Source of the DNA: an uncultured bacterium
GTDB lineage: Bacteria > Zixibacteria > MSB-5A5 > UBA10806
Length of the DNA stretch: 29,745 bases
Direction: 5' to 3'
Assembly (NCBI GenBank): GCA_965541585.1
Contig: CBEUCH010000026.1
Location: forward strand, 1 to 29,745
Made by a program: the position numbers and the translations under genes. Positions 9,475 to 27,836 of this stretch are shown here, in pieces (position 1 is the first letter of the stretch; each line of letters begins with the position of its first letter). The notes beneath the pieces are model-generated. The model had not been told where the DNA came from. It did no database searches and saw only the letters and a list, made by a program, of their open reading frames with translations.

Positions 9475-9547
9475 GCCGGAGTAGCTCAGTTGGTAGAGCA
9501 GCTGATTTGTAATCAGCCGGTCGGCGGTTCGAGTCCGTTCTCCGGCT
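9475..9547 (+). tRNA. tRNA-Thr (anticodon TGT)
   Basis: Acceptor stem GCCGGAG/CTCCGGC; D-loop AGTTGGTA; anticodon arm GCTGA-TTTGTAA-TCAGC; GGTTCGAGTCC T-arm. CCA is not encoded. Confidence 0.97.
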
Positions 9548-9565
9548 ATTTGATTGACAATGCCG

Positions 9566-9647
9566 GGTGGGGTTCCCGAGTGGTCAAAGGGAACAGACTG
9601 TAAATCTGTCGCCTCAGGCTTCGGAGGTTCGAATCCTCCCCCCACCA
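9566..9647 (+). tRNA. tRNA-Tyr (anticodon GTA)
   Basis: Acceptor stem GGTGGGG/CCCCACC plus discriminator A; anticodon arm ACAGA-CTGTAAA-TCTGT; long variable arm; GGAGG-TTCGAAT-CCTCC T-arm. CCA is not encoded. Confidence 0.97.
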
Positions 9648-9912
9648 GTTTTTTATAAACCTCCGGGATCCTGCCCGATGCATGTGGTTTCATAGCACTC
9701 TGTTTTTTTTCTGTTAAAGAGCATGGTAAGTCCGTGCTGGCTCGATAGTTAGATCGTCAGTCCAGTCTCCAGAGGGAACCAACCATGACATTGTTCGAAA
9801 TTCGAATCCCAGAGTCCATATTTATAGACTGCTGCAGTTAGAGATTACCCCTGAATTCTCCAAAGCAATCCATGATCACTTCAAGAGATTTTATGAAAGT
9901 GTTACAGGGATT

Positions 9913-9939
9913 TAAAATCACCAAGAATTAGTCCGAAAC
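9913..9939 (+). promoter_or_regulatory. Putative sigma-28 (FliA/SigD)-type promoter, copy 1 (weakest match)
   Basis: TAAAATCA, 11 nt, TCCGAAAC versus consensus TAAAGTTT-N11-GCCGATAA. Ends 7 nt before RNA motif copy 1, the same offset as in the other two copies. Confidence 0.55.
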
Positions 9940-9946
9940 TACTGAA

Positions 9947-10064
9947 GAAAACTAAATAACGGACGCAGAATGCCTTGTCGTGTAAGACACGGGCTTGCAA
10001 GAGCGGGGCGCAATCGAATCACCGGTCGGGGTGATAATGATCGCGCCCTTCTTTTTTGCCCGGA
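9947..10064 (+). ncRNA. Conserved structured RNA motif, copy 1 (candidate attenuator/riboswitch or sRNA)
   Basis: GAAAACTAAATAACGGACGCAGAATGCCTTGTCGTGTAAGACACGGGCTTGCAAGAG, then hairpin GGGCGC...ATCACC...GGTGAT...GCGCCC and TTCTTTTTT. Recurs at 22166 and 27377. Confidence 0.8.
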
Positions 10065-10109
10065 CGAGGTTTATTCATAGAAAAGTCGATCAAATAGAGC
10101 TACCGAAAT

Positions 10110-11198
10110 ATGAAAAGAGAGAGCGCATTGATTCATTCCGCTTCGCAGGTGATTGAGTATTTGGTGATATTGACCTTGTTTTTAGCCGCTGGCAACGTTT
10201 CGGCGCAATCACCGAAGCTAAAAATATACGGCTACTTCGATGTGGAGATTGAGGTCAGCAACAAGGATGCAGCCGGCAAGATATGGACCTTCGACCAGCA
10301 TCACCTCAATATCGTTACAATATACCGAGTAGACGAGCAATTCCGGGTATTCAGTGAAATTGAATGGGAGCATGGACCCTCCCACAAAGTTGATGAAACA
10401 ACCGGAAAGATTTATCTGGCTAAAGCCTTCGTAGAATATAAGAATTCCGACGCTTTCCGGGTACGCGTGGGCAAGTTTTTATCTCCTTTCGGGATCTATA
10501 ACGAGAGGCATGATGCTACCCCCACCTTCATTTCGACAAAGCTGCCGCATTCTGTTTACGGGGAACATGAGTTATCAACGGGAGCCAAAGGCCGTTTGTA
10601 TAGCAAGTTCTCCACCGGGATTCAGGCTCTTGGCAGCCTGTACGCCAGCGGCTGGGAGGGGAAATATCAGCTATATTTGTCCAATGGCAGAGGAGCCAAT
10701 CCTTATGAGAAAGACGATAACCCCAATAAGGGTATCGGGGCGCGTCTGGTTATATCTGCTCCAATAGAAGACCTTCGGCTGGGAACCTCCTACTATGCCG
10801 ATCGAAACGGCAAAGTCGGCAACACCAGGCAAAGCGCTCTGGGGTTTGACGCCGAACTGGATTATCTGAATTTCCATCTCGAATCAGAAATGGTCTTTCA
10901 CGAAATCGGGCTAACAGATACACCCGGGATGTCGAACGGCGATTTCAGGCACGGGTTCGGGTATTACGTTCTGGCGGCATACACTATTCTTGATAAACTG
11001 ACCCCGTTCTCCCGGTATGAATCACACGATCATGATATCGATGAAGGCGAGGTGGATGAGAACCTGGGCATGATCGGAATTAACTATTCTATCACCCCCC
11101 GGGTTTACCTGAAAAACGAAGTTCACTTTCATAACTTTATCGGTGGTGCGGAGGAAGGTTTCAAGATGTATATCGCTTCTATCGCGGTGGCATTTTAG
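10110..11198 (+). CDS. Outer-membrane beta-barrel (porin-like) protein
   Basis: Signal peptide (VSA-Q); KIYGYFD, SEIEWEHG, RVGKFLSPFGIYNERH, D-N-NKGIGARL motifs; C-terminal YIASIAVAF beta-signal. Confidence 0.8.
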   Translation: MKRESALIHSASQVIEYLVILTLFLAAGNVSAQSPKLKIYGYFDVEIEVSNKDAAGKIWTFDQHHLNIVTIYRVDEQFRVFSEIEWEHGPSHKVDETTGKIYLAKAFVEYKNSDAFRVRVGKFLSPFGIYNERHDATPTFISTKLPHSVYGEHELSTGAKGRLYSKFSTGIQALGSLYASGWEGKYQLYLSNGRGANPYEKDDNPNKGIGARLVISAPIEDLRLGTSYYADRNGKVGNTRQSALGFDAELDYLNFHLESEMVFHEIGLTDTPGMSNGDFRHGFGYYVLAAYTILDKLTPFSRYESHDHDIDEGEVDENLGMIGINYSITPRVYLKNEVHFHNFIGGAEEGFKMYIASIAVAF

Positions 11199-11208
11199 CA
11201 TGGGATAG

Positions 11209-11682
11209 ATGGTCAGGCGCATGATAACAAGCGGGAAATATACAATCTGTACTCTGATTCTGGTTCTGCTTTGCCTCGGCAGCACGGCAACGGCTCAGAT
11301 TGTGGTAGTCGTCAACGACAGTAATTCCATATCCGATCTGACACTGGATGAGCTGAAGCGGATTTATCTGGGTAAGACGACCGCTTTCCCCGATGGAAAG
11401 GAAATTGTTCTGATGGAATACAGTCCTCTGTGTGAGAAGTTCTACAAGGCCGTTTTAAATATGACAGAATTAAAGGTGAGAAAACACTGGATGAAGGTTG
11501 TGTTTTCCGGCGAGTATGCCACGCCTCCAACAGAGTATAAAGATCTGGACGAGATTAAAAACCAGGTTTGTAAAAATAGAGGAGCAATCTGTTTTGTCGG
11601 GCTGTCCGAGGTCGAGGATTGTATGAAGGTTCTGACAATCGAGGGCAAAAAGCCTGACGACGAAGGCTATCCCCTCAGGTAG
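11209..11682 (+). CDS. Small periplasmic PstS-like (single-lobe substrate-binding-like) protein
   Basis: Signal peptide (ATA-Q); IVVVVNDSNSISDLTLDELKRIYLGK...GAICFV...KVLTIEG resembles part of phosphate-binding PstS, but the protein is only 157 aa. Confidence 0.75.
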   Translation: MVRRMITSGKYTICTLILVLLCLGSTATAQIVVVVNDSNSISDLTLDELKRIYLGKTTAFPDGKEIVLMEYSPLCEKFYKAVLNMTELKVRKHWMKVVFSGEYATPPTEYKDLDEIKNQVCKNRGAICFVGLSEVEDCMKVLTIEGKKPDDEGYPLR

Positions 11683-11719
11683 GGTTGGCAATTTCCTGTA
11701 GGCGGAGGAATATCACAAT

Positions 11720-14700
11720 ATGACCTTTCAATTGTCCAGCTTGCGCATACGCACGAAGATACTGATCAGTTCTGTTTTAACGTTGGTGCTGATTTCCCTG
11801 TTTATTCTTGCCTATTATCCGGCCCAGCAGAAACGGCAGATCTACAATGCTATGCAGCAGAAAGATCACGCCGTGGCGGAGATGATAGGGCTGGGGGTCG
11901 GCATCGGGATGGGAACAGGTGACTTCGTCGCCATTACCGAGGCGCTCGACTGGGCTAAAAAAGAAGCCAATCTGAATTATATCGTGGTGCTCGACGAAAA
12001 TAACGAAGTAATCGCTTCTTACAATCCCCGTAGTATCGAACTGGATATTCAGCATTTGCTTATCAAGGATGATATCATGGAAATCGATGGCCACTCCCTG
12101 CATGCCGTCAACGTCCCGATTATAATTCAGGATGTGAACTATGGAACTCTGCTTTTCGGGAGTTCACTGGAGGAGGTAAATCGCGCCATCTCAGGCAACG
12201 CAAAAACGACATTGGAGGTGAGCCTGGCGATTCTCTTCCTGGGTCTCGCCCTTTCGGTGTATTTTAGCCGATTGATTACGAAGCCCCTCGCTCGACTACG
12301 CGACGCTGCCGACGAAGTCGGTCGCGGAAATAAAAACGTGGCGATTGATATTACCGGTACCGATGAGGTGGGCGTCCTCGGGATAGCATTCAAGGAGATG
12401 ATTAAAAGCGTCCGCCAGGCAGAGGAACAAGCCGCCATCTTCCGTCAATTCGCCGAAGCCTCCGGGCAGGGCCTCGCCATGGCCACGCCTGATGGCGAGA
12501 TTACGTATGCCAACCCCTCGCTCATCCGTCTTATGGGGGAGGATAAACTGGAGGATTTAATTGGCAAAACATTCGTTCCCTATTATCCCGAAGAACTACA
12601 GCAACGCATGCGGAACGAGATACTCCCCGCCGTTATGGAGAAAGGTCATTGGGTAGGAGAATTGGCGATAAAATCTACCGACGGTCGGCTGACACCTACT
12701 CTGGAGAGTATATTTCTCATCCGCGATGAAAACGGCAATCCACTCTGTCTGGCCGATATAATGATAGATATCACGGAGCGCAAACGGGCGGAGGAGATTC
12801 TCAAGAGGCAGGCAGCATTTGTTAAAAATAATCCAGGCCCGGTTTTGAACGTCGAGAAGAATGGTTATATTTTGAGTGCCAATCCGGCGACTAAAGCGAT
12901 ATTTGAGGATGATTTGATCGGAGAATTGATATATGAAAAGTTTCCGAAGATTACGCAATCAATTATTAATGTACCGGCTGGCCTAGAGCCTGTTCAAATC
13001 GAAGAGCAGATTGGAAACATGACCTATTTATTTGCGATCCGTCTTGACGAGTCGACTAACACGGTTTTTGTTTATGGAACCAATATCACAGAACGCAAGC
13101 GAGCGGAGAAGGCATTGCAGAAGCGGACGTACGATCTTGGCGAACGGGTCAAGGAGATTAATTGCCTTTACCTGACTTCAGAACTGATAGGAACGAGGGG
13201 TATTTCTCTGGAGGAGATTTTTCATGGGACGATCGATCTCATTCCCCCTGCGTGGCAATATCCAGACATAACATGCGCCAGAATAGTCCTTGAGGGACGT
13301 GAATTTAAAGCCAAGAATTTCGTGGAAAGCGAGTGGAAACAGGCTTGCGAAATCGTCGCCTGCGATGAAAACGTTGGATCCATAGAAGTCTATTATGGCA
13401 AACAGATGCCCGAATTTGATGAGGGGCCATTCCTGAAAGAAGAAAAAAACCTCCTCTTGCACATAGGGGAGCGCCTGGGATCGGCAATAGAGCAGAAAAG
13501 GGCCGAAAAGGCTCTTCAGGAGTCGGAAGAAAGATACAGGGGTTTGGTGGAAAATATCGATATCGGGATTTCCTTGATTAGCCCGCAGATGGAAATCCTG
13601 TCCCTGAATAGAAAGATGCAGGAGTGGTTTCCAGGCATAGATCTGTCCAAAAAACCGCTCTGCTATGATGTATATAATCTTTCGACAGAAAAGCAGATAT
13701 GTTCGAACGGCCCGGCAGTCATGACGCTGAAAGACGGAAAAGTCCACGAAGCCATTATCGAAGCCCCGGAGGGTGGCGAGGTAAGGAGTTTCAGGATTGT
13801 ATCATCTCCGATAAAAGATATGTTAGGTGATATAGTCGCCGCTATTGAAATGGTCGAGGATATTACAGAAAAACTAATGATCCAAAAGGAATTGACCCGG
13901 ACGGACAAACTCGAATCGATCGGTATGCTCGCCGGTGGTATTGCCCACGACTTCAATAACCTTCTGGCCGGTTTCATGGGAAATATCTCGCTGGCCAAGA
14001 TGGAAATCGATCCGAGAACCAAAGCATATGACGCATTGGAGAGAGCCGAAGCCGCATCCGTCAGGGCTAAGCGACTAACCTTGCAGCTTCTCACATTCGC
14101 AAAAGGTGGAGCGCCTGTTAAAGAAAGGGCTTCGATCCAGGAATTGATAAAGGATGCAGTCAGCTTTGCGCTTAGTGGTTCCAACATCAGATGTGATTTT
14201 CTGATACCGGATGATGCCTGGGAGGTTACGGTGGATAAGGGGCAGATCGGCCAGGTAATTCGGAATCTTGTTCAGAACGCCGCTCAGGCGATGATCGGTG
14301 GAGGGTTTATAAGAATATCTGTTGAAAATCTTCTTGCCGGATCGGGCGAACCCAATCTTCTCGATAGGTGTAAATACCTGAAAATTTCTGTTCAGGATCA
14401 TGGTGTCGGGATCGCTGAGGAACATATTCAAAAAATATTTGAACCATATTTTACGACCAAGCAACAGGGGAGTGGTCTGGGGCTGCCCGCCGTTTATTCC
14501 ATTGTGAAGAATCATGACGGCCATATAGACGTGGACTCTGAATTGGGCGTAGGAACGACTTTCCACGTCTACATACCTGCGACGGAGTGTGAAATATCGG
14601 CAGAACCAACGCCCGAAGCTGAGATTGTCTCCGGCAAGGGAAAGGTACTGGTAATGGATGATGAGGAGATGATCAGAGAAATGCTTGAGGACCTGCTGGA

Positions 14701-15037
14701 GATAATTGGATATGATGCAAAGTTCACATCAGATGGAGCCGAGGCTATAGAGCTTTTCAAAAAAGAGCGAGATCTTGGTCAGCCCTTTGATATTCTCATA
14801 ATGGATTTAACCATTCCCGGAGGTATGGGTGGAAAGGAAGCTATGGCCAGGATAAGAGAGATCGATTCTGAAGTGAAGGCCATAGTCTCCAGCGGGTACT
14901 CATCCGACCCGGTCGTAGCCGATTTCAGAAAGTACGGCTTTACGGGATATCTAAATAAGCCGTATAACGCCAGCCAACTAAGCAGCGTGTTGGATGATGC
15001 CCTCCACTCTGAATGCATTGAACGAGACTTAAAATAA
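11720..15037 (+). CDS. Hybrid sensor histidine kinase (TM-periplasmic-TM-HAMP-PAS-PAS-GAF-like-PAS-HisKA-HATPase-REC)
   Basis: HAMP ITKPLARL...DEVGVL; DITERK linkers; H-box AGGIAHDFNN; NLVQNA, DHGVGI, FTTK, GSGLGL; REC VMDDEE...MDLTIPG...KPY. RBS GGAGG. Confidence 0.95.
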   Translation: MTFQLSSLRIRTKILISSVLTLVLISLFILAYYPAQQKRQIYNAMQQKDHAVAEMIGLGVGIGMGTGDFVAITEALDWAKKEANLNYIVVLDENNEVIASYNPRSIELDIQHLLIKDDIMEIDGHSLHAVNVPIIIQDVNYGTLLFGSSLEEVNRAISGNAKTTLEVSLAILFLGLALSVYFSRLITKPLARLRDAADEVGRGNKNVAIDITGTDEVGVLGIAFKEMIKSVRQAEEQAAIFRQFAEASGQGLAMATPDGEITYANPSLIRLMGEDKLEDLIGKTFVPYYPEELQQRMRNEILPAVMEKGHWVGELAIKSTDGRLTPTLESIFLIRDENGNPLCLADIMIDITERKRAEEILKRQAAFVKNNPGPVLNVEKNGYILSANPATKAIFEDDLIGELIYEKFPKITQSIINVPAGLEPVQIEEQIGNMTYLFAIRLDESTNTVFVYGTNITERKRAEKALQKRTYDLGERVKEINCLYLTSELIGTRGISLEEIFHGTIDLIPPAWQYPDITCARIVLEGREFKAKNFVESEWKQACEIVACDENVGSIEVYYGKQMPEFDEGPFLKEEKNLLLHIGERLGSAIEQKRAEKALQESEERYRGLVENIDIGISLISPQMEILSLNRKMQEWFPGIDLSKKPLCYDVYNLSTEKQICSNGPAVMTLKDGKVHEAIIEAPEGGEVRSFRIVSSPIKDMLGDIVAAIEMVEDITEKLMIQKELTRTDKLESIGMLAGGIAHDFNNLLAGFMGNISLAKMEIDPRTKAYDALERAEAASVRAKRLTLQLLTFAKGGAPVKERASIQELIKDAVSFALSGSNIRCDFLIPDDAWEVTVDKGQIGQVIRNLVQNAAQAMIGGGFIRISVENLLAGSGEPNLLDRCKYLKISVQDHGVGIAEEHIQKIFEPYFTTKQQGSGLGLPAVYSIVKNHDGHIDVDSELGVGTTFHVYIPATECEISAEPTPEAEIVSGKGKVLVMDDEEMIREMLEDLLEIIGYDAKFTSDGAEAIELFKKERDLGQPFDILIMDLTIPGGMGGKEAMARIREIDSEVKAIVSSGYSSDPVVADFRKYGFTGYLNKPYNASQLSSVLDDALHSECIERDLK
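13510..15000 (+). repeat. PAS-HisKA-HATPase-REC block duplicated at ~18646-20135
   Basis: Near-identical protein stretches (IGISLISPQMEILSLNRKMQEWFPG; DKLESIG; IVKNHDGHIDV/VVKNHDGHIDV; DLTIPGGMGGKEA) with visible nucleotide identity. Boundaries are approximate. Confidence 0.85.
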
Positions 15038-15173
15038 GAATTGGCTAAAGATCTCTCCTCCAGGTCACCGAAGTCGACCGGAGGAACGATATACAAGATC
15101 AAGGTGTCCCATAACGGCGGTCGCCCTGGATTATGAGAAATCACACTGAAGCCTGTACTGATAAAATAAGCGC

Positions 15174-15203
15174 TTGACAAAATCAAGATGGCCGTGATAT
15201 ATA
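15174..15203 (+). promoter_or_regulatory. Putative sigma-70 promoter
   Basis: TTGACA (15174-15179), 18 nt, TATATA (15198-15203), with a TGn extended -10. Confidence 0.5.
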
Positions 15204-15303
15204 AAGTGCGATACATTCAATTCTGGCGCTGGTGGGGGAAGACATTGGTCAAGGATGCAGAAAATTATCTAATTTTGATCGTTTTTGACTATTTGGCAGT
15301 CTC

Positions 15304-18300
15304 ATGAACGAGAAAAGAAGAATCATCGCCCTCATAATAATTCTGGCGGTTTCAATAACCATCATAGCTTCCGTGACAATCTTTCTTTTATACAGAACGG
15401 CATTTGAACAGCAGACGGCGCGCCTTGCGGAGACGGCGCAGAGCCGGGCACGCATGATGGAGGCAGTAGCCCGGTTCGATATACAGTACAGCGATCAGGA
15501 TATTGCGGGAGGAGCTTTCGCTGCCACGCTTTTGCAGGTCTTTGACGCTCATTCGCGCTTCGAGGGTTTCGGAGAAACGGGAGAATTTACCCTGGCTAAG
15601 CGGGATGGAGACGATATTGTTTTCCTCTTGAGTCACCGCCACACTCATGATGAATCCGAGACTCCCGACTCAGAATACCCTTTGCCTACCCCGATACCGT
15701 TCAATTCCGATATCGCTGAACCGATGCGTCGGGCGCTGTCGGGAAAGTCGGGGACGCTTGTTGGCCTTGACTACCGTGCGGCCGAGGTGCTGGCCGCCTA
15801 TGAGCCGGTTGACGTGCTCAACCTGGGTATTGTCGCCAAGATCGATCTTGCAGAAATCCGAGCGCCCTTTATCAGAGCAGGAATAATGGCCTCGGGAGTC
15901 GGTATTATTATGATCCTCGTCGGAATATTTCTGTTCCTGCGTATCAGCGATCCCATGATTCGGCGTCTGGAGGAATCTGAGCAGCGTCTGACATTGGCAC
16001 TCGAAGGCGCTCAAGATGGCGTCTGGGATGTGAACATCATGTCAGGTGATGCGGTTTACAGTGATCGCTGGGCTTCCATGCTCGGTTATGATCTCAGCGA
16101 AGTCGAACCGAAAAACGACTCCTGGGAAAATCTGCTTCATCCTGATGATCATTCCCGGGTTATGGAGCGAATCAATGACCACTTGGAAGGAAAGACCTCA
16201 TCTTACAGCGCTGAGTTCCGCATGAAAGCAAAATCCGGGGAGTGGAGGTGGATTTTGAGCCGCGGCCGGATAGTAGAAAGGGACAGCAGGGGGAAACCGC
16301 AGCGAATGACCGGCACGCACTATGACATCACCGAGCGAAAGCAGGCGGAGGAGACATTGCGGGAGACTCAGGATTACCTTCTTAAAGCTCAAGAAATTGC
16401 AAAATTTGGTAATTGGTCATGGGAAAAAGATAAAGACATAGGTTTCTTCTCAGAAGAGGTCTATAATATGTTAGGTTACACTATAGGTGAAATTCAGCCA
16501 AGTCTTAAATGGTTATTAGGAATAATGCATCCTGATGACAGAGAGCAAGTAATAAAAGGTATAGAAGAATCAATGCGCACTGGCAAATCGTATGCTGGGG
16601 CGTACAGGCTTACAAGAAAGGATGGAAAGGAAATTATTGTAGATTCACGAGCAGAAGTTGTCTTAAACCATGCAGGTGAAGCAACAGAGATGATAGGAGT
16701 CATTCAGGACATCACCGAGCGAAAGCAGGCGGAGGAGGCGCTGAGAGCCTCGGAGACAAAATACCAGGATCTCTACGATAACGCCCCTGACATGTATGTC
16801 TCCGTTGACCCGGAAACAGCTGAAATCATAGGTTGTAATGAGACATTCTCAAAGCGTATCGGTTACAAAACGGAAGAAATCATAGGCCGCCCCATCTTTG
16901 ACATGTATCATCCTGATTGCATGGAAGAAGCAAGAGAAGCGTTCAATTCGTATGTGACTACGGGTGTAGTGAGCGACAAAGAGCTTCAGTTGAAGAAGAA
17001 AGATGGAACGAAGATAGAGGTCAGCTTGAATGTTTCTGCCGTTCGCGATGAGCAGGGTAAAATCTTATATAGTAGATCCTCCTGGCGTGATATTACTAAG
17101 CGAAAGCAGATGGAGGAGGCGTTACGGGAATCCGAGAGTCGGTACCGCGAACTTATTGAGGAATCCGGGCTGGCTTTCCTCATCGACGATTTGGACGGCA
17201 ATTTCATCTATTTCAATGACACTTTTGCAGGACTTTTTGGATATGGCCGGGAAGAGATGCAGAAGCTCAGAATCCAGGATCTCGTGCATCCGGATGATTT
17301 CGACGAGGGACAGATGCGGCACCGGAATAGTATTCGGGCGCCTCAACAGAGCTCTCAATATGAATTACGCGCAATAAAGAAAGATGGATCGATAATTCAT
17401 CTTGAAATTAATTCCTCTCCGATTAAGAAGGGAAATAAAATCTCCGGATTCAGGTCCTATATCCGCGATATCACCGAGAAGAAGCTCGCGGAGGAAGCGC
17501 TGATAGATTCCGAGGAGAAGTATCGCCAGCTGTTCACCACCGAAATGGACGCCATAATGATCTTCGATGGCGAAACGCGACAGTTTGTGGATGTGAACGA
17601 TGCAGCGATCCGGCTATATGGCTACAGCAGGGAAGAGTTTTTGAAATTGGAGATTATCGATATTACCGCGGAACCGGAAGCCTCCGAGAGAGCCATACAG
17701 AAAATCGTGGCAGGGACGCCCGCCACCGGTATGACACGCCTTCATAAGAAAAAGGACGGGACCATATTTCCGGTGGAGATATCCGGTAGCAGTTTCAAGC
17801 TGAAGGGTCGAGGTGTAGGTTGCGGAATAGTCAGGGACATCACCGAGCGGAAGCAGGCGGAGGAGGAACTGAAGAGAAGTGAAAAAAGCCTATCCAGGGC
17901 GCAGCATATAGCTCGCCTTGGTAACTGGGACTGGAACATCCTTACACGCCAGTTATTCTGGTCTGACGAGATCTATCGTATATTCGGGCGTAGCGCCGAT
18001 GAGTTCGACCCCACTTTCGGATCGTTCTTGAGCCTGGTACATCTTGATGATCTTGACCGTGTTCAGGAGGCTGTTGACGAGGCCATGGCCAAAAACAGGC
18101 CGTATAGCATTGACCACCGCATCGTGCGGCCTGATGGTGAGATACGTATCGTCCACGAACAGGCAGATGTGACTTTTAACAATTCTGGTCAGCCCGTTCG
18201 CATGGTGGGCACGGTGCAGGATATCACCGAGCGCAACAAGGCTGAAGAGGCGTTGCGGGAGAGCGAGGGGAAATTCGAATCTTTCTCGGAAAATCTTCCG

Positions 18301-20151: not shown

Positions 20152-20385
20152 TCCGGCGGGCGAAACCTGGTTTGACAATAGAACAATCAGCGAGAAAATG
20201 GCCGCCGTAGACAGTAGAGAGTTAGCGACCTTTAAATAAATTGAAGCCACGTTATGACAGAAAAAAGCGATAATCACTTTGACAATTGGGGAAATGTAGC
20301 CTATGAACGACTGGAGGAGAGCTTATAAGGTCCGGCTCGCCGATAGAATCCTCCGGATCTTAAGCTGTGGTAATCGCCTTAGAAG

Positions 20386-21363
20386 ATGATTGATGTGATG
20401 ATAGCAGAATCTATCGAAAATAGATACTATCAACTTCTGAAAGCGCATTTTACCGAACCGCAGGGGATGTTTTTACATAGCGTGACCGAAATTGGACGTG
20501 AGATCGTAAAAGAAGGAGTTCCAATCGAAGATGTCGCGAAATTGCACGAGAAGACGATAGATCGCTTGGAGCGTGAGTCCCCCAACAAAAAACTGCTGGA
20601 GAATAACCATGTCGTCTTTCAACCCCTGATGGAATTACTCATAGTTTACGGCGCTGCTTCTCGCAAGAGGTTCAAGGAGCAAAAGAGGGCGGAAGCGCTG
20701 GCCGCCACCGGCCAGATGGCTGGACGAATCGCCCATGAAATTAATAATCCGTTGGCAGGTCTGAAGAACTCGTTTGCCCTTATCAAGGATGCAATCCCCG
20801 ATGATCACCCGGATAGAAAGTTCAGTAGCTATATCGATAAAGAAATTGACCGAATTGCTAATATTGTAAGACAGATGTTCGTCCTATATAAACCGCCAAA
20901 GGTTCCGGCCGACGATATATATCTCGTTGACGCTATTAATGATGTCATATTAATGTTGGAAGCCGAATGCAAACAGCGAGGTATTGCCATCGATTTCCGC
21001 GGCCCTGATCAATCCTTAAAGATGTCCGCTCCTGAGGGCTCATTTCAACAGGTATTGTACAATGTTATTGTCAACGCCATCGAAGCTTCCCCGGATCGTG
21101 GAATAGTATCGGTAACCGCATCAATAGATGAGAGAAAACTGGAGCTGGTGGTTTCGGACCAGGGGAATGGAATTCCGGAAGAGATAGGCGACCGGATTTT
21201 TGAGCCTTTCTTTTCGACAAAAGGAAATACATCGAGCGGAGGCCTGGGTCTCGGGCTTTCGGTCTCGAGAAGCCTGGCGCAGGCAATGAACGGTTCTATT
21301 GAATATAAAAGCGATCCAGGTAAGGGAACCGAATTCAAGATTGCGTGGCCGTTAAGTAGTTAA
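20386..21363 (+). CDS. Cytoplasmic histidine kinase with an RsbU N-terminal-like domain
   Basis: N-terminal YYQLLKAHF...LHSVTEIGREIVKEGVPIEDVAKLH matches the RsbU_N helical pattern; H-box IAHEINNPL; NVIVNAIEA, DQGNGI, FFSTK, GLGLGL. Confidence 0.85.
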   Translation: MIDVMIAESIENRYYQLLKAHFTEPQGMFLHSVTEIGREIVKEGVPIEDVAKLHEKTIDRLERESPNKKLLENNHVVFQPLMELLIVYGAASRKRFKEQKRAEALAATGQMAGRIAHEINNPLAGLKNSFALIKDAIPDDHPDRKFSSYIDKEIDRIANIVRQMFVLYKPPKVPADDIYLVDAINDVILMLEAECKQRGIAIDFRGPDQSLKMSAPEGSFQQVLYNVIVNAIEASPDRGIVSVTASIDERKLELVVSDQGNGIPEEIGDRIFEPFFSTKGNTSSGGLGLGLSVSRSLAQAMNGSIEYKSDPGKGTEFKIAWPLSS

Positions 21364-21376
21364 CAAGGGGTGTCAA

Positions 21377-22174
21377 ATGAGTAACTTAGGACGGATCTTT
21401 ATCGCTGACGATGAGGAGGTCTTTCTTGTCTCCACAGCAAGGCTGCTGGAGAAAAGGGGACATCAATGCCAGACCGCGACGAACGCGGCCGACGCTGCCA
21501 AGATTCTGAGCAGTGAGAATTTCGATCTTCTTATTGCGGATATTAGAATGCCCGGGAACACCAACCTGGAGCTGATAAAGGATCTCCCCAATATATCAGA
21601 GGGATTGCCCGTCATTCTGGTTACAGGCTATCCATCGATACAGACGGCAATCACCGCCCTGGAGTTGCCGGTTGTATCGTATCTGGTCAAGCCGCTTGAT
21701 ATCGACGAGCTGATCGAATCCGCTCAAAGGGCTATAGATTCCTACAGGGTTTACAGCAATATAAACAACACGCGCCGACACTATCAATTCTTGTCAAAAG
21801 ACCTCGAAAATATCGAGAAGGCATTTGAGGCCAATCTGGGCGATTATTCTTCAATGCCCGCAGACGCATTTGTATCGCTCAACCTTAAGAACATTCTTAA
21901 CAGCATATGTAACCTGGCATACCTTATTAACATACACGAGAAACAAGATGGGGATCAAGAGATCTGCAGACTATTCAATTGTCCCAGATTGATGACGCTA
22001 ATTGAGACACTATGGGAAGCAACACAGGTTCTGGAGAGAACAAGGAGTGCTTTTAAATCCAGCGAACTTGCCCAGTTGCGCGTGAAACTGGCGAAGATTA
22101 TTACCGAAATGCTAAAATATTCCCCTAATGCTAAAGTTTTGCACTCTTTACCCGATAAGAAAATTGAAAACTAA
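21377..22174 (+). CDS. Response regulator (REC + unrecognised helical C-terminal domain)
   Basis: IFIADDEE, LIADIRMPG, VTGYPS, YLVKP; no recognisable HTH or AAA+ output domain. Confidence 0.88.
   Translation: MSNLGRIFIADDEEVFLVSTARLLEKRGHQCQTATNAADAAKILSSENFDLLIADIRMPGNTNLELIKDLPNISEGLPVILVTGYPSIQTAITALELPVVSYLVKPLDIDELIESAQRAIDSYRVYSNINNTRRHYQFLSKDLENIEKAFEANLGDYSSMPADAFVSLNLKNILNSICNLAYLINIHEKQDGDQEICRLFNCPRLMTLIETLWEATQVLERTRSAFKSSELAQLRVKLAKIITEMLKYSPNAKVLHSLPDKKIEN
22132..22158 (+). promoter_or_regulatory. Putative sigma-28-type promoter, copy 2
   Basis: TAAAGTTT (22132-22139), 11 nt, CCCGATAA (22151-22158): 15/16 match to TAAAGTTT-N11-GCCGATAA. Confidence 0.8.
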
Positions 22175-22281
22175 ATAACGGAAGCAGATTGCCTTGTCGT
22201 GTAAGACATGGGCTTGCAAGAGTGAGGCGCGGTCAAATCGCTGATTGAGCGATTTTGGCAGCGCCTTTTTCTTTTGCCGGA
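22166..22281 (+). ncRNA. Conserved structured RNA motif, copy 2
   Basis: Same 57-nt 5' core; hairpin AGGCGC...AAATCGCT-GATTG-AGCGATTT...GCGCCT followed by TTTTCTTTT. Confidence 0.8.
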
Positions 22282-22536
22282 TTGGGAAATAATAGGAGTA
22301 AGTTGGAGGTTGCAGTAAGAATTCCGGTATCGAAAATTAATTAATACCATCGCAGGGATCATGATGCAGGCCATGATAATAAACTTACAGGGAATCGATA
22401 CCCGGATTCCAGAAATTCTCGGGATATACTGGAATCATTGAGAGATCGTAACAATGTATTTAAAGGTATCAAAACTAACATTAAGGTCAGACTGAATAGA
22501 TAAGGAATGATCACCGAGTAAACAAGCGAGAGGGAT

Positions 22537-23727
22537 ATGAAAAGCCTGGATTTAAGCAAAATATGGACCGGAGAAGTCAACCCCGATATAATCTCGACTA
22601 TCTCTCACGAGTTGAGGACGCCGCTGTCTATAATCCGGGAATTCATCTCATTAGTATATGATGAGGTTCCGGGCCCTATAAATGATAGACAGCGCGTATG
22701 CCTCGAATCTGCCCTGAGAAACTGCGACAGGCAGGCAACATTAATAAATGATATATTGGATGCGTCGAAATCAAATTCTAGTAGACTCCTTTATAACCGA
22801 CGGAAAACAAACATCAAATTGCTGATTGATGAAATCGTGGGAGATTATAGCCTGAAATGCGAAAAGAAATCTCAAGTATTGAGCTTGGAGTACGAGGAAT
22901 CATTACCGGATGTGCTGTGCGCCCCTGATCAGATTACCCAGGTATTATTGAATTTGCTGAGCAATGCCCGACGATATACCCCGGAGGGAGGGCGTATAAC
23001 AGTGGAAGCCCATTCAAATGAGGAAGTTATCGTGGTTCATGTTATAGATACGGGAATAGGCATTGGTCATGATCAACTATCGAGGATATACCAGAACTTT
23101 TTTCGCATAGACTCAACGCAAGCCGAAGCCACCAGAGGTTCGGGATTAGGTCTGGCAATAACAAAAGATTTAATCGAGCAAAACGGCGGAGAGATTCTTA
23201 TCAAAAGCGAACCGGGGAAAGGGAGCGATTTTTATTTTACTATTCCCATTTACAATAGAAGAGTTGAATATGAGGCAGCTTTATTTGATCATGCAAGGCC
23301 GATAATCGCAAGCGGAAAGCCACTTTCCTTAGTTCTTGTGCGATTCAGAGTGTCTGAGAATATTCGTAGCCGGGATAGAGACTTGAAGTTGCGGGAATTA
23401 TCGAAGGGTATCAAGGAGACGTTGCAGAATAATATAATAAGTTCCACAGATCGCGTTCTATCAACGAATACGGAAGATATTATTGCGATCGTTCTTGAGA
23501 CGGATAGAGCCGGTTCGAAAGCGGCGGCCGACAGGTTAATACGTGCGCTATGTGATAAGTACGATTACATATCAAGCTTTGCAAGCAGTCAACATAGTTA
23601 CACGGGTAATACATGTACATGGCCTGAACTCAAGCGATTGATTAGGGCGGCGGAACGAAAATTAAAATCAAAAGACAAGGTTTTCATGGAGGTGAAGGAT
23701 GGCAGGCAGCAAGATTCTAATAGTTGA
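22537..23727 (+). CDS. Sensor-less histidine kinase with a C-terminal degenerate GGDEF-like domain
   Basis: H-box ISHELRTPL within ~25 aa of the start; NLLSNA, DTGIGI, GSGLGL; tail LSLVLVRF...DIIAIVLETDRAGSKAAADRL resembles the GGDEF fold without the signature. Confidence 0.85.
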   Translation: MKSLDLSKIWTGEVNPDIISTISHELRTPLSIIREFISLVYDEVPGPINDRQRVCLESALRNCDRQATLINDILDASKSNSSRLLYNRRKTNIKLLIDEIVGDYSLKCEKKSQVLSLEYEESLPDVLCAPDQITQVLLNLLSNARRYTPEGGRITVEAHSNEEVIVVHVIDTGIGIGHDQLSRIYQNFFRIDSTQAEATRGSGLGLAITKDLIEQNGGEILIKSEPGKGSDFYFTIPIYNRRVEYEAALFDHARPIIASGKPLSLVLVRFRVSENIRSRDRDLKLRELSKGIKETLQNNIISSTDRVLSTNTEDIIAIVLETDRAGSKAAADRLIRALCDKYDYISSFASSQHSYTGNTCTWPELKRLIRAAERKLKSKDKVFMEVKDGRQQDSNS

Positions 23728-24091
23728 TGATGAGCCGGACATATTGCAGGCCTTGACGATGCGATTGGAAGCGGCAGGCTATGAGGTAATCACCGCCAAT
23801 AATGGCTATGACGCTACGAATTTGGCTGCGAAGGAATCGCCGGATCTGATTATTTGTGATATAGGTATGCCTGAGATGGATGGCCATGAGGTTGCAAAAG
23901 AGATCAGGAGATCGTCAGGCATGGCGCATATACCTATAATCTTCTTAACTGCTCGAACAGAACTGGAGGAGATGAAGATCGCGGTTGAGGAAAAGGTTGA
24001 TAGATATATTACTAAGCCGGTTGATCCTCAGCTCCTTCTAATGTCGATAATGGCTTTGCTGATGCGTAACACGAAGGAAAGAAGTTGCTGA
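23699..24091 (+). CDS. Single-domain response regulator
   Basis: ILIVDDE, ICDIGMPEMDG, FLTA, YITKP; RBS GGAGGTG; overlaps the upstream kinase by 29 nt. Confidence 0.93.
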   Translation: MAGSKILIVDDEPDILQALTMRLEAAGYEVITANNGYDATNLAAKESPDLIICDIGMPEMDGHEVAKEIRRSSGMAHIPIIFLTARTELEEMKIAVEEKVDRYITKPVDPQLLLMSIMALLMRNTKERSC

Positions 24092-24155
24092 TTGTGCGCG
24101 GGCGTAGCGATATTCGCGGTCAATCTTAGATGTCGGCGTACGGAGTAGAAATATC

Positions 24156-25730
24156 ATGGGATTAAAAGGACCCATCACTGGTATGACTGAGCCGAAGCGA
24201 GCGGATGGATCAATAATAGAATCCGAGTTACGCTACCAGGAATTATTTTTCTCCATGATGGAGGGAATTGTTTTGCTGGATAAAAACGAAAACATCCTGT
24301 TTTGCAATCCTGTATGTGCGAGGATTCTTGAAGAAGGATCAGAGAACAAACTGATAGGTAGAAGTTTTTTGGACTATATTCCGCGAAGCGAGCAAGAAAA
24401 TATCTCGTCGCAAGTTGAGAAATTAAGAGAGGGTGAATGTTTACAACAAGAATTGAATATCAAAACAGCAAAAGGAAACGACAGGACAATTTTGTTTTCC
24501 GGCTCCCCTTTGCTTGATGATGATGGCGAATTTAAAGAAATATTCGCCATTATAATGGATATATCGGAGCTAAAGGAATTGCAGATGTTCAATTCACGTG
24601 CCCAGCGATTGGAGATGGCGGGACGGATAGCTGGTCAGGTAGCACATGATTTCAATAATCTTCTTTCCCCGCTTGCCGCATATCCGGAGCTCATCAGAAG
24701 CGAGCTTCCTGAGAATCATTCTATTCTCAAGTACGTTGACGCCATACAGAAAGCAGCGCTACAAATGGCAGAAATCAATCAACAGCTTTTGACACTTGGT
24801 AGGAGAGCTCATTTTAAGATAGAATTCTTGAATCTTGGCGTTATTATCAAAGAGGTTATTGCTCAGCTACAACCGGCTCCGGAAACACTGATCATTGACG
24901 TTAGCATAAGTGCTGATCTGATGGAAATAAAAGGTGGTATCTCTCAGATCCATAGGCTGGTTCTAAATCTGATAAACAATGCAAGAGAGGCAATGCAGGA
25001 TAAAGGGTATCTAAGTATCAGGGCCGAAAATTATTACTTAGATGAATTAATTGATAAGTGTAATCGAATTGTCACTGGAGAATATATTAAACTTACGGTT
25101 TCGGATACCGGTACCGGCATTCCGCCGGAAATCATAGATAGGATATTCGAGCCCTTTTTCTCCGCGAAGAGTATGGATGAACGGAGGGGTTCAGGATTGG
25201 GCCTGAGCATTGTGCATGCTGTCCTTGAAGATCATAATGGTTATATTGACGTTGAAAGCGCTGTTGGGAAGGGAACGTCGTTCTTCATATACTTTCCCGC
25301 GGCGGGAGAGAACTCAGATATATCGGCAGAGGATCATATAGTGGGGGGGAAGGAAAGAGTCCTGGTTGTGGACGATGAGCGGGTACAGAGAGATGCTGCG
25401 CTGGCGATATTAAAAGAGCTTGGCTACGATGCCTCATCAACTAGAAGTGGCGAAGAGGCAATCGACTACATTCGGAAATATCCGCAAGATCTGCTAATTA
25501 TCGATATGATAATGCCCGATGGGATTGACGGTGTTGAAACCTATAGACGGGTCCAGGAAATAAATCCCGGCCAGCAGGCAATTATGATATTGGGATATTC
25601 CCAGCCCTGCAAGGCCGAGGAAGCGAAAGAGCTTGGAATCAAAGTCTTCATAACAAAGCCATTGACAATTAAATCCTTAGCAGTCGCACTAAGAAAAGAA
25701 CTGGATAAGGGAGTGGTGACGAGATCGTAA
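24156..25730 (+). CDS. Cytoplasmic hybrid histidine kinase (PAS-HisKA-HATPase-REC)
   Basis: One PAS; AGQVAHDFNN; NLINNA, DTGTGI, GSGLGL; REC VVDDE...IDMIMP...TKP. Confidence 0.93.
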   Translation: MGLKGPITGMTEPKRADGSIIESELRYQELFFSMMEGIVLLDKNENILFCNPVCARILEEGSENKLIGRSFLDYIPRSEQENISSQVEKLREGECLQQELNIKTAKGNDRTILFSGSPLLDDDGEFKEIFAIIMDISELKELQMFNSRAQRLEMAGRIAGQVAHDFNNLLSPLAAYPELIRSELPENHSILKYVDAIQKAALQMAEINQQLLTLGRRAHFKIEFLNLGVIIKEVIAQLQPAPETLIIDVSISADLMEIKGGISQIHRLVLNLINNAREAMQDKGYLSIRAENYYLDELIDKCNRIVTGEYIKLTVSDTGTGIPPEIIDRIFEPFFSAKSMDERRGSGLGLSIVHAVLEDHNGYIDVESAVGKGTSFFIYFPAAGENSDISAEDHIVGGKERVLVVDDERVQRDAALAILKELGYDASSTRSGEEAIDYIRKYPQDLLIIDMIMPDGIDGVETYRRVQEINPGQQAIMILGYSQPCKAEEAKELGIKVFITKPLTIKSLAVALRKELDKGVVTRS

Positions 25731-25760
25731 TATGTGAGATGTTTTTACTCGAAATGCTTT

Positions 25761-25823
25761 GACCTAGCCCTGCCACTAGGTCCTCAAGGCGGTGGTAGTT
25801 ACCTCAATAACTGCTGCCGCCTT
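25761..25823. terminator. Tandem hairpins between convergent genes (probable terminator)
   Basis: GACCTAG-ccctgcca-CTAGGTC (25761-25782), then AAGGCGGTGGTAGTTA-cctcaa-TAACTGCTGCCGCCTT (25786-25823). The U-tract is weak. Confidence 0.55.
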
Positions 25824-26023
25824 CTTCAATTGCGACAATTTCGATTTTAATTAACTGCAAACATTAGAATCTTTTAAAACAGTGCTTTTCAGGCTATTGC
25901 AGCCGTCCAAGCATCCTGCAGAGTTAACTGAGATGCAAAACACCTTCCAATTGCTATGATTCGAAGAAAAGGCAGAAAGTAACATAACCGGCAATTTTAG
26001 CATTTTCTATATACCGGGCGTAT

Positions 26024-26584
26024 TTACTTCAAGAACATCATTTTCTTGGTTTTCTCAAAGTCCGCTGCTACTATTCGGTAGAAGTAGACCCCCGTGCTCA
26101 CCCTGAAACCCCTATCATTCTTGCCAAACCATTGCGACGCCTTGTAGCCGGCGTCTTGTCGCTCATCCACCAAGACCCTCACCTGTTGTCCCAGAACATT
26201 ATAAATATGTATCCTTACATCGGACGCCGCCGGTAATTCATATTCTATCGTGGTACCGGCATTGAATGGATTGGGATAGTTTTGGTGCAGTGCGAATTCC
26301 TCGGGGAGTTCGATAACAGGTTCCGTTGCCCACTCTATTACAGCGGGATTCCAGAATCCATTATATAGAGTCATCGTTGTTCCTTCAACGGTCTCGATGA
26401 TAGGTTCACCGAGTGATGAAGAGAGCATGAAGTTGGTGCTGGTAAGCCTCATGGCTCCTCCCGAACTCATACATTGTCGGAGAATCTGGGCAGCGAAAGA
26501 ATCCGTAGGGCCGATATTGGAGATACCCAACACCAACAGGAAAAACAAACTTCCTCTGGAAAAGGTTTTCAAACATCTTGTCAT
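26024..26584 (-). CDS. Small secreted protein with a C-terminal FlgD-Ig/T9SS-type-A-like domain
   Basis: RBS GAGGGGG; signal peptide; SSGGA...STNFMLSSSLGEP...LYNGFW module; EFALHQNYPNPFN...IYNVLGQQVRVL...STGVYFYRI...KKMMFLK. Confidence 0.88.
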   Translation of the reverse strand: MTRCLKTFSRGSLFFLLVLGISNIGPTDSFAAQILRQCMSSGGAMRLTSTNFMLSSSLGEPIIETVEGTTMTLYNGFWNPAVIEWATEPVIELPEEFALHQNYPNPFNAGTTIEYELPAASDVRIHIYNVLGQQVRVLVDERQDAGYKASQWFGKNDRGFRVSTGVYFYRIVAADFEKTKKMMFLK

Positions 26585-27342
26585 TGTTCACCCCCTCTTT
26601 ATTGTTCGAATAATTTATCGGGACTATGGCTCCTCTAATTTTATTTATCGGCGTATGCGTTTGAAATTATTAAATAAAATCGAATCCTGAACAGTATGTG
26701 GCTGAAACAGTTATTTCTGAACAGTCGCTGGATTTCTCATTACAGCAAGGATATTACGAATTTTTTGCGGATTGCTGCAAAAAAGCCGCTAACGGCATGT
26801 AAATAAGTATTTGCCGCACGTCTCCTGGCCGCGCAGCGTTAGCGTAGAGCAGATCAAATTAGGAGAAATGCTGTCCATCGGATTACTCCGCCGGGAAGTG
26901 ATATATCGCGGGTCGTCTAACGTGAGGGTTGTATTTGTCGTTATTAGCTTGTTGTAGCAACGACACTTTTATTCTCGGATGGCCAGGATAAAGGATATCC
27001 ACCGTGAAATAGTAGCCCGCCACTTTTGGCTTAAACGCGCGATGTTTCAAAATCATCTGATCCAAGCTGTGAATCTGAATTCGGCGATCATTCAAAACCG
27101 GTCGATCCATGTAGACGCTAAATGGACTCTGCAGAATCAAAGGCGATGTAGACCTTCGCCGGGTCTTCAAGCTATTTAATTATCAGTGATTGCCAGGTTG
27201 GGAAGAGGGTGTTGGGAAAGCGCGGCTGGTCTTCAAGAAGGGGATATATGTTCTTAAAGCCATGCGGATTAGAAAGTTGCGATCAAAAAACATCAAATCG
27301 ATAAAGACTGTTCCACATATCGAAAAATATTTTCACAGGTGC

Positions 27343-27369
27343 TAAAGTAATGAACTCCCTGCCCGATAA
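27343..27369 (+). promoter_or_regulatory. Putative sigma-28-type promoter, copy 3
   Basis: TAAAGTAA (27343-27350), 11 nt, CCCGATAA (27362-27369). Confidence 0.75.
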
Positions 27370-27376
27370 TATGACT

Positions 27377-27493
27377 GAAAACTAAATAACGGACGCAGAT
27401 TGCCTTGTCGTGTAAGACATGGGCTTGCAAGAGTGAGGCGTAATCAAATCGCTGATATGAGCGATTTCGGTTGCGCCTTTTTCTTTTGCCGGA
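27377..27493 (+). ncRNA. Conserved structured RNA motif, copy 3
   Basis: Same 57-nt 5' core; hairpin AGGCGTAATC-AAATCGCT-GATATG-AGCGATTT-CGGTTGCGCCT followed by TTTTCTTTT. Confidence 0.8.
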
Positions 27494-27836
27494 TCTGAAA
27501 ACGATATGCAGAGAATTGAATTTTCAAACGGAAAGATCGGTGACGAAACAACATGAATAATGGAGGGGTAAGAGAATTCAACTTAAAGGTTTTTTCATCC
27601 TAGAGTACCTCCATATATATAAAGAGGGGGGTATATAGTGAGGCATTTGAATGACCCACAAATTTGTGAGCATTTAAACATAAGTATAGTTGAAACGAGC
27701 TTTAAGCGGACGGGAGGCGCATAAGTCAGATCGCAGGAAGATCTTAGGCCGCCTGACAATGACATTTTATAGAATAAAGAATGTTCTGGTTAAAGAAAAT
27801 AGTAAAGAAAAATCTCCACAGGAGGGGGAAAAAGAG

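Follow-up and report, generated by a model that had tools for sequence, protein, structure and literature searches.

We analyzed a stretch of 29,745 nucleotides (nt) from an uncultured bacterium of the phylum Zixibacteria (contig CBEUCH010000026.1 of assembly GCA_965541585.1; hereafter, the window), and in particular a short repeat within it that precedes genes for signaling and surface proteins. The repeat is a real, undescribed leader RNA with three alternative states, and it has a strong candidate protein partner. We put a probability of roughly 0.5 on the reading that each copy is the 5' leader of a transcript driven by a sigma-28-type promoter and is a protein-dependent transcription attenuator. 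This attenuator would work in the manner of the RAT/LicT or ANTAR systems but would belong to neither. Attenuation in cis, of whatever kind, is likely. The candidate partner, which we call REC-X, has a receiver domain (REC) followed by an unannotated four-helix domain, and its gene lies in the window.

An earlier note on this sequence had described three copies of the repeat, all on the + strand, whose first 57 nt vary at only three sites. This was borne out for the copies in the window (Table 1); the variable sites are positions 18, 24, and 44 of the repeat. The note also placed the end of copy 1 (at 10064) 45 nt before an ATG at 10110, which is correct. A search of the whole source genome (G000; 3.5 Mb, 98% complete) with nhmmer found a fourth copy, at G000:C18:27201. 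The copies had E values of 1e-31 to 1e-38, and the next match (E = 0.6) was the reverse strand of copy 3's own hairpin. Copy 4 varies additionally at position 20, which breaks an outer GCAG/UUGC stem.

The earlier note had raised the possibilities that the repeat belongs to a described RNA family or is a mobile repeat, and we found no sign of either. First, Rfam 15 matched the window only at two tRNAs and at terminators (23-25 bits, versus gathering thresholds of 50-95), and there were no Rfam matches at E ≤ 1 for five homologous loci in other genomes. Second, there are four copies in 3.5 Mb, and each copy keeps one orientation relative to its own promoter and the next gene. By eye, the 15-nt flanks show neither terminal inverted repeats nor target duplications. 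Given the low copy number, the constant orientation, and these flanks, we rejected a miniature inverted-repeat transposable element (MITE), and the repeat does not behave like a repetitive extragenic palindrome (REP) either.

The genome has five sites that match a 12-mer taken from the repeat's 5' end (with one degenerate position): the four copies and the 5' leader of flagellin (G000:C3:70182; L029:1418-1429), where it precedes a GGA hairpin of the CsrA-site type. This is suggestive only, as the 12-mer is A-rich and the pattern was picked after the likeness was seen.

Homologues of the RNA lie next to genes for REC-X-like proteins. As the earlier note had proposed, we searched with covariance models. 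A model built from the four copies found a homologue in G017, a relative of the same order (44.7 bits; 24 genomes of the order searched). A second model (R2), which includes the promoter, found homologues in G033 (43 bits) and G255 (35 bits) among 151 genomes. (G255 also has a second, degenerate copy; we refer to its copies as G255a and G255b.) These three genomes were identified by genome-wide RNA search before we searched for the protein, and in all three, a REC-X gene is at most 300 nt away. Since at most 10 of the 150 other genomes carry the output domain, the chance that all three RNA matches would fall on carriers is about 2 in 10,000 (ignoring kinship and co-transfer). A homologue in G031 was found beside the gene (18.8 bits with R2) and was missed by the genome-wide search. 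Overall, the RNA has homologues in four other genomes of the phylum, or tentatively five, and every homologue outside this genome is within about 300 nt of a gene that encodes a receiver and the four-helix output domain. The tentative fifth, in G251, follows a stand-alone 97-amino-acid (97-aa) version of the domain: behind that gene are a hairpin, a terminator, and, about 30 nt further, a gene for an exported protein.

The arrangement of the RNA and the gene varies. The RNA is upstream of the gene in G017 and G255a, downstream of it in this genome, G033, and G031, and behind the stand-alone domain in G251. We found the domain in 11 of 285 genomes, and the RNA was seen only alongside the protein (5 of 5 genomes, or 6 of 6 with G251). 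Conversely, 5 or 6 of the 11 protein-positive genomes have the RNA. Two genomes from the same genus as the source have neither. A third model (R3), run on 40 + 80 + 80 genome slots (198 distinct genomes), had strong matches only to its training sequences. In protein-negative genomes it had no match that bears an antiterminator; its weak matches in nine of them (21-30 bits) are bare terminators.

Other searches did not extend this distribution. BLASTN with copy 3 gave only short chance matches in 60 relatives, and a 23-nt pattern (with up to 3 mismatches) gave 3 non-self matches in 285 genomes, versus 6 in the control. An exact-pattern scan of genome contigs gave the G017 locus and two chance matches. 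A metagenome scan gave four matches, none with a promoter or terminator. Scans of viral sequences gave no matches and then eight chance matches, with no viral relative of the protein. The protein had no match in plasmids, nor in another phylum, for which 201 genomes were searched by way of locus L044 (with no positive control), and no holder of the RNA was listed among sequencing runs. We rejected the weak model matches L033, L034, L036, L037, and L039 (L039 is antisense within an open reading frame (ORF)), as well as an R3 match at G033:C36, which is a bare terminator. A motif-like match at G033:C289 (L091, 2743-2845) scored 21.7 bits, which is noise, and is excluded from all counts. It might be a divergent copy: it has a sigma-70-like promoter and precedes a membrane-protein ORF at the end of the contig.

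The RNA has three mutually exclusive conserved folds: a hairpin that we call P1 (nt 26-48 of the repeat), a longer antiterminator hairpin (nt 26-63), and the terminator. In the antiterminator, the 5' strand of P1 pairs with the 5 nt that begin the terminator stem; that is, the antiterminator's 3' end is the 5' arm of the terminator. In isolation, the predicted energies are -10 to -12 kcal/mol for P1, -13 to -14 for the antiterminator, and -28 to -31 for the terminator. When prefixes of the four copies were folded, P1 formed first, the antiterminator was the minimum free energy (MFE) structure at most lengths from 64 to 95 nt, and the terminator was favored at full length. P1 is the hairpin that was described in the earlier note. 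It is the MFE structure of each 59-nt fragment (-13.1 kcal/mol) and it is conserved, but it is just one of the three folds, and the RNAalifold consensus of nine sequences is the antiterminator. Also, the P1 fragments are not more stable than shuffled sequences (z = -1.1 to -1.4). Whole copies are (z = -3.0 to -5.8), and most of this comes from the terminator.

We then compared nine sequences from this genome and its relatives. (The alignments, A9 and A10, leave out G251, whose long insertion was misplaced by MAFFT.) In the antiterminator, 88.8% of 116 cells are paired, which 3 of 500 shuffles reach, and 4 of the 13 pairs have changes on both sides. Controls that slid the antiterminator had 30-54% paired, and controls over all three folds had 23-57%. 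In P1, 86.1% of 72 cells are paired (0 of 500 shuffles reach this), with changes on both sides in 2 of 8 pairs; its C12-G19 pair is broken in three of the nine sequences and its loop sequence differs between genomes. In the terminator, 94.9% of 99 cells are paired, with changes on both sides in 3 of 11 pairs. These counts are supportive but not significant, as the sequences are related, four are from one genome, and the structures were derived from the same set. In 8 of 10 sequences, the terminator arm is predicted to pair upstream with a probability of 0.79-0.99. The antiterminator leaves unpaired all four positions at which this genome's copies vary, and its upper internal loop has an invariant C-G pair beside a G.A mismatch. 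Finally, copy 3 and the G033 homologue are identical at 25 of 38 nt, versus 15 of 51 fourfold-degenerate sites of the linked gene, which points clearly to selection on the RNA.

Not all of the repeat is conserved to this extent. The earlier note had proposed a conserved module at the 5' end; of this, P1 is kept, but the outer stem is broken in copy 4 and the first 25 nt are not kept in other genomes. Similarly, an ACGGA motif and a possible start codon are not conserved across genomes. In G033, both G255 copies, and G031 (L052, L053, and L066), an extra 5' hairpin lies directly before the conserved core; it is absent from this genome. Overall, the conserved, mutually exclusive folds and the lack of an Rfam match support the earlier suggestion of a transcription attenuator outside the known families.

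The earlier note did not mention promoters, but all four copies are preceded by a sigma-28 (FliA)-like promoter and start 7-10 nt downstream of the motif. We scored the promoters at 16 positions (an 8-nt -35 box, an 11-nt spacer, and an 8-nt -10 box) against the FliA consensus as given in an excerpt of PMC7286023. Copies 1 to 4 match at 10, 15, 13, and 12 positions, and the homologues in G017, G033, G255a, and G255b match at 12, 16, 12, and 11, all with the 11-nt spacer. So 6 of the 10 sequences score 12-16, while 54 of 4,000 random 90-nt windows score at least 12. No sigma-28-like promoter was found at the G031 and G251 loci (the best scores are 9 and 10 of 16); by eye, G031 has a sigma-70-like motif instead. 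As for sigma-70-like sites on the + strand of the window, there are none in 9650-10200 (around copy 1) or from the terminator of copy 2 to 22537, and one behind copy 3 (27753-27782; 9/12, which is chance level). The source genome encodes FliA (above the cut-off), CsrA, a FliW-like gene, flagellin, and four GGDEF matches, while Hfq had no match in this 98% complete genome. FliA is present in 272 of 285 genomes, so missing FliA does not explain the patchy distribution of the RNA.

The earlier note had suggested that the attenuator might respond to a ligand or a protein, and the linkage to REC-X gives the latter a concrete candidate. REC-X has one copy in this genome. Its C-terminal domain has a C-x4-C-P motif and a basic helix pair with T-K-x-x-F-K-S-x-E-L-G-x-L-R. 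A profile of the C-terminal 128 aa matched 1036 representatives (clustered at 50%) at E ≤ 0.001, among 1.84 billion sequences; the best 150 were listed, of which 142 were aligned. The conserved residues are C197, C202, P203, L219, T222, K223, F226, K227, S228, L231, L234, R235, and L238. The last helices are conserved and basic, with a mean net charge of +2.4 across residues 213-241. Among 15 sequences that we read, the domain is a C-terminal module behind REC, PAS-PAS, PAS, or MEDS inputs. No Pfam family covers the domain, and the NCBIfam matches listed cover the receiver or PAS parts.

The AlphaFold (AF2) model of the domain has four helices (predicted local distance difference test, pLDDT, 84; predicted template modeling score, pTM, 0.51). 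Foldseek found no match to this model at E ≤ 0.001, VIA-align found only generic helical hairpins over domain residues 1-75 (the first two helices), and sequence and fold searches of the PDB found no convincing relative. The ESM Atlas had no usable match for the domain. A full-length relative matched only REC-labeled clusters there, most commonly from Verrucomicrobiota, Gemmatimonadota, and Planctomycetota, which we consider a lead only. Immediately before REC-X in the window there is a histidine kinase gene, whose product is the candidate cognate kinase; by eye, a histidine kinase gene has the same place in G033, G255, and five genomes of genus g32. The cysteines hint that the domain might sense a metal. 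The stand-alone 97-aa domain in G251 has C-x-x-C-x4-C-P (L067, G251:C221, 1349-1769, minus strand), and its gene sits between a feoB-like gene and an exported porin-like gene (labels by eye).

How might these pieces work together? From the observed repeats, promoter-like motifs, alternative pairings, and linkage, we infer transcription, termination, binding, and a direction of control as follows. FliA would start transcription about 7-10 nt past the -10 box, given the consensus. The nascent RNA would form P1 and, as nt 59-63 emerge, would refold into the antiterminator, which holds the terminator's 5' arm (this step is computed, with comparative support). By the computed energies, the terminator should win by default, so the downstream kinase, porin, fiber, and stressosome genes would be off. 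The histidine kinase would then activate REC-X via its receiver, and the C-terminal helical domain would bind the antiterminator and allow read-through, as suggested by linkage, domain architecture, and analogy. REC-X would probably contact the invariant C-G pair and the G.A mismatch. A single REC-X gene would serve all four copies, and the outcome would be an AND gate of the late flagellar sigma factor and a two-component signal. In G017 and G255, the leader is upstream of the REC-X gene, so positive feedback would follow.

Several observations weigh against this mechanism. First, five protein-positive genomes (all from genus g32) have no detectable RNA, either genome-wide or in about 70 kb around the genes. 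The linkage itself could reflect co-transfer of one cassette, because in three genomes the REC-X gene ends within or right next to the promoter. The G031 and G251 loci were found by inspecting the surroundings of the genes, and with R3, whose training set did not include it, G251 reaches only 20.4 bits, the level of bare terminators. Because R3's noise is at 21-30 bits, the case for G251 is its position and manual folding. Second, G033 and G255b have no clear gene on the same strand behind the terminator, and G031 has a 1.3-kb gap to the downstream gene. Third, the comparison involves 9-10 sequences from 5-6 genomes, four of which share a genome, which makes the covariation counts non-independent. 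When sequences were shuffled one by one, the signal for the antiterminator was weak (p = 0.017-0.116 in 8 of 10) and was missing from G017 (p = 0.59) and G255b (p = 0.54). Fourth, P1 is about as conserved as the antiterminator, so P1 could be the regulated state, which leaves room for a ligand-bound OFF switch. Finally, neither fold nor profile searches tied the output domain to a known RNA-binding protein, and the REC-X of G017 lacks both cysteines and has a degenerate receiver.

Other explanations of the repeat are less probable. We consider it unlikely, though still a serious rival, that a cis attenuator is run by something other than REC-X. This could be another host factor, or a small molecule that stabilizes P1 as an anti-antiterminator (an OFF riboswitch). 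REC-X would then be linked by co-transfer or as a regulated gene, and it does lie downstream of the leader in G017 and G255. P1's two pairs with changes on both sides, the genome's four GGDEF matches, and the signaling and surface genes behind the leader fit with a riboswitch. (Such genes are typical of c-di-GMP regulons.) But there is no Rfam riboswitch match at E ≤ 1, P1 alone is not above shuffles and has a broken pair and a variable loop, and the narrow distribution is confined to protein-positive genomes. The cyclic-dinucleotide riboswitch that the earlier note had in mind is not supported, given the lack of an Rfam match, the narrow distribution, and the presence of the RNA only alongside the protein.

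Slightly less probable again is the earlier note's other idea, a multicopy small RNA (sRNA): a stand-alone, sigma-28-dependent RNA that base-pairs in trans or titrates a protein (REC-X or CsrA), with the terminator as its 3' end. Each copy does have its own promoter and terminator, no clear gene follows the RNA at two loci (G033 and G255b), and an unpaired 5' 17-mer containing ACGGA is shared by the four copies, in a genome that has CsrA and a FliW-like gene. We view this as a minority alternative. An sRNA does not need a conserved helix that captures the terminator arm. Also, neither the 5' segment nor its GGA is retained in G017, G033, G255, or G031; the first 18 nt have no 12-nt perfect complement outside the copies; Hfq was not found; and the genes behind copies 1 and 2 have no separate sigma-70-like promoter. 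We demoted the specific idea of a CsrA sponge because the GGA is not kept in the relatives. Both a metabolite riboswitch and a trans-acting sRNA are less likely than protein-dependent antitermination.

It is improbable that the repeat is an unregulated or DNA-level element, such as a promoter-terminator cassette that is copied with mobile signaling islands (perhaps with REC-X as a DNA-binding factor) and whose alternative folds are incidental. By eye, the island that holds copy 4 includes ORFs resembling integrases and primases; neither the RNA nor the protein occurs in two genomes from the source's genus; and GCC/GGC-rich sequence readily forms alternative folds (the null means were 0.4-0.7 in the shuffle test). 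Against this are the compensatory changes in the antiterminator and the terminator, conservation far above that of synonymous sites, the single orientation without terminal repeats, and a conserved part that is downstream of the predicted start and is not palindromic. As for a ribosome-mediated attenuator with a leader peptide, nt 24-26 read ATG or TTG in each of the four copies, and the variation at nt 44 would be synonymous, but the homologues largely refute the idea, as the start codon is missing at that position in G017, G033, G255, and G031, and by eye the stop positions differ among the four copies.

How would REC-X-dependent antitermination compare to known systems? As described in excerpts of PMC3105407 and PMC12591593, the ribonucleic antiterminator (RAT) is a single hairpin, with two internal loops, whose sequence partly coincides with that of a far more stable intrinsic terminator, and the two are mutually exclusive. 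Similarly, our predicted antiterminator is a 38-nt hairpin interrupted by two internal loops, and 5 of its nt also belong to the terminator, as backed by the pair counts. Unlike the RAT of BglG, SacY, and LicT, our RNA has no Rfam match. The only family matched by the linked protein is Response_reg, neither CAT (PF03123) nor PRD is among the families listed for its relatives and for the domain fragments, and the candidate RNA-binding part is C-terminal and all-helical. The input would be a two-component receiver instead of the phosphotransferase system (PTS), and the targets would be signaling and surface genes instead of sugar operons.

REC-X also resembles the ANTAR proteins EutV, AmiR, and NasR in having a receiver, a long helix, and a small helical C-terminal module; both modules are fused to other sensors as well (such as PAS for ANTAR, according to an excerpt of PMC12591593), and both leaders overlap a terminator. 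In excerpts of other studies, ANTAR is a three-helix bundle of about 60 aa (PMC8934654) that recognizes dual hairpins with A1 and G4 in hexaloops (PMC3369931). In contrast, our RNA has a single hexaloop, with G1/U4, in this genome and G017 only, and it is not kept elsewhere; the REC-X domain has the C-x4-C-P motif. The AF2 model of the domain has four helices. ANTAR (PF03861) is not among the 25 of 85 families listed for 102 members (E ≤ 0.1), and 7 domain fragments had no match to it at E ≤ 10. A search for PF03861 in five genomes gave no match, but gave none in the control either.

Two other comparisons are less close. Like c-di-GMP-I (GEMM) riboswitches, the repeat is a leader with a terminator before signaling and adhesin genes, but neither the window nor the five homologous loci match them in Rfam at E ≤ 1. 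A few short words in the leader may resemble GEMM. These words vary among the copies and homologues, and we demoted the idea of a GEMM derivative. Sigma-28-dependent or multicopy sRNAs (of the FliX/MotR, Qrr, and RsmX types) likewise occur in several copies that each have an intrinsic terminator and a promoter for an alternative sigma factor. Our RNA differs in that its antiterminator helix is conserved and no seed is kept across genomes; it also has at most two GGA motifs, and its genome gave no Hfq match.

The RNA-binding antiterminators listed in an excerpt of PMC12591593 are CAT, ANTAR, and HutP only, with ANTAR as the RNA-binding output of response regulators. A word search of the open-access literature found no description of our RNA or domain (subscription papers and the supplements of RNA-motif surveys were outside its scope). 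A further proposal, for which we would not quite offer even odds, is that REC-X represents a third family of RNA-binding antiterminators coupled to sensors, alongside CAT and ANTAR. A possibly metal-binding helical domain would recognize a single bulged hairpin over a terminator, and in this organism would gate a sigma-28 regulon that comprises kinases, a stressosome/KaiBC island, and a surface fiber. If so, an orphan output domain with over 1,000 sequence clusters would gain a function and a target RNA, and two-component signaling would gain a second RNA-binding output. The pair would also be a compact orthogonal switch (about 40 nt and 90-130 aa), and an uncultured phylum would have post-initiation control layered over its flagellar sigma factor. 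Even without the protein link, this is a conserved three-state leader that is absent from Rfam.

Table 1. Features of the window (29,745 nt) that relate to the repeat
Feature	Position	Strand	Details
Copy 1 promoter, sigma-28-like	9913..9939	+	10/16; weakest of the four; aligned with the copy-4 promoter; own score not above background
Leader RNA copy 1	9947..10062	+	P1 9972-9994; antiterminator 9972-10009; terminator ~9999-10058
Genes behind copy 1	10110..20151	+	Porin 10110-11198; PstS-like 11209-11682; PAS hybrid histidine kinases 11720-15037 and 15304-20151 (Pfam)
Histidine kinase, candidate cognate kinase of REC-X	20386..21363	+	RsbU_N, HisKA, HATPase_c (Pfam)
REC-X, candidate antiterminator protein	21377-22174	+	Receiver aa 7-115 (Asp55 kept); unannotated four-helix C-terminal domain aa 118-245 (nt 21728-22111)
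Copy 2 promoter, sigma-28-like	22132..22158	+	15/16; within the unconserved tail of the REC-X ORF
Leader RNA copy 2	22166..22279	+	P1 22191-22213; antiterminator 22191-22228; terminator ~22218-22277
Genes behind copy 2	22537..25730	+	Histidine kinase, stand-alone REC, PAS hybrid kinase
Copy 3 promoter, sigma-28-like	27343..27369	+	13/16
Leader RNA copy 3	27377..27491	+	P1 27402-27424; antiterminator 27402-27439; terminator ~27429-27488
Secreted fiber/adhesin-like gene behind copy 3	27838..29745	+	Start codon with Shine-Dalgarno sequence; weak NCBIfam match to Bdello_MAT_N; runs off the window

The genes around the copies are shown in Table 1. The same-strand run that begins behind copy 1 continues into the kinase and REC-X genes; its PstS-like protein has a weak match to NCBIfam TIGR02136. 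The first 9 nt of copy 2 overlap the final codons of REC-X. The REC-X ORF extends about 20 codons beyond the family's usual end (22112-22174), across the promoter of copy 2, and its stop is in this overlap. Some 90 nt downstream of copy 4 is a STAS/RsbR-like gene, the first in a series of stressosome-, kinase-, and KaiBC-like ORFs (all labels but STAS are by eye). The island around copy 4 (G000:C18:~23500-38500) has primase-like, integrase-like, RsbR/S/T-like, kinase, and KaiB-/KaiC-like genes, and has no REC-X of its own (most labels are by eye).

Two tRNA genes (9475-9647) lie 300 nt upstream of copy 1, and the signaling cluster begins right after them. Because the cluster follows the tRNAs, and because REC-X and the RNA are missing from two genomes of the same genus, insertion at a tRNA is suggested. 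Within the cluster, the kinase-receiver halves of the two hybrid kinases (13492-14973 and 18627-20111) are duplicates about 5.1 kb apart, with 74-81% identity in the longest matches. The fiber gene contains a 321-nt direct repeat (29154-29745; 93% identity over 271 nt).

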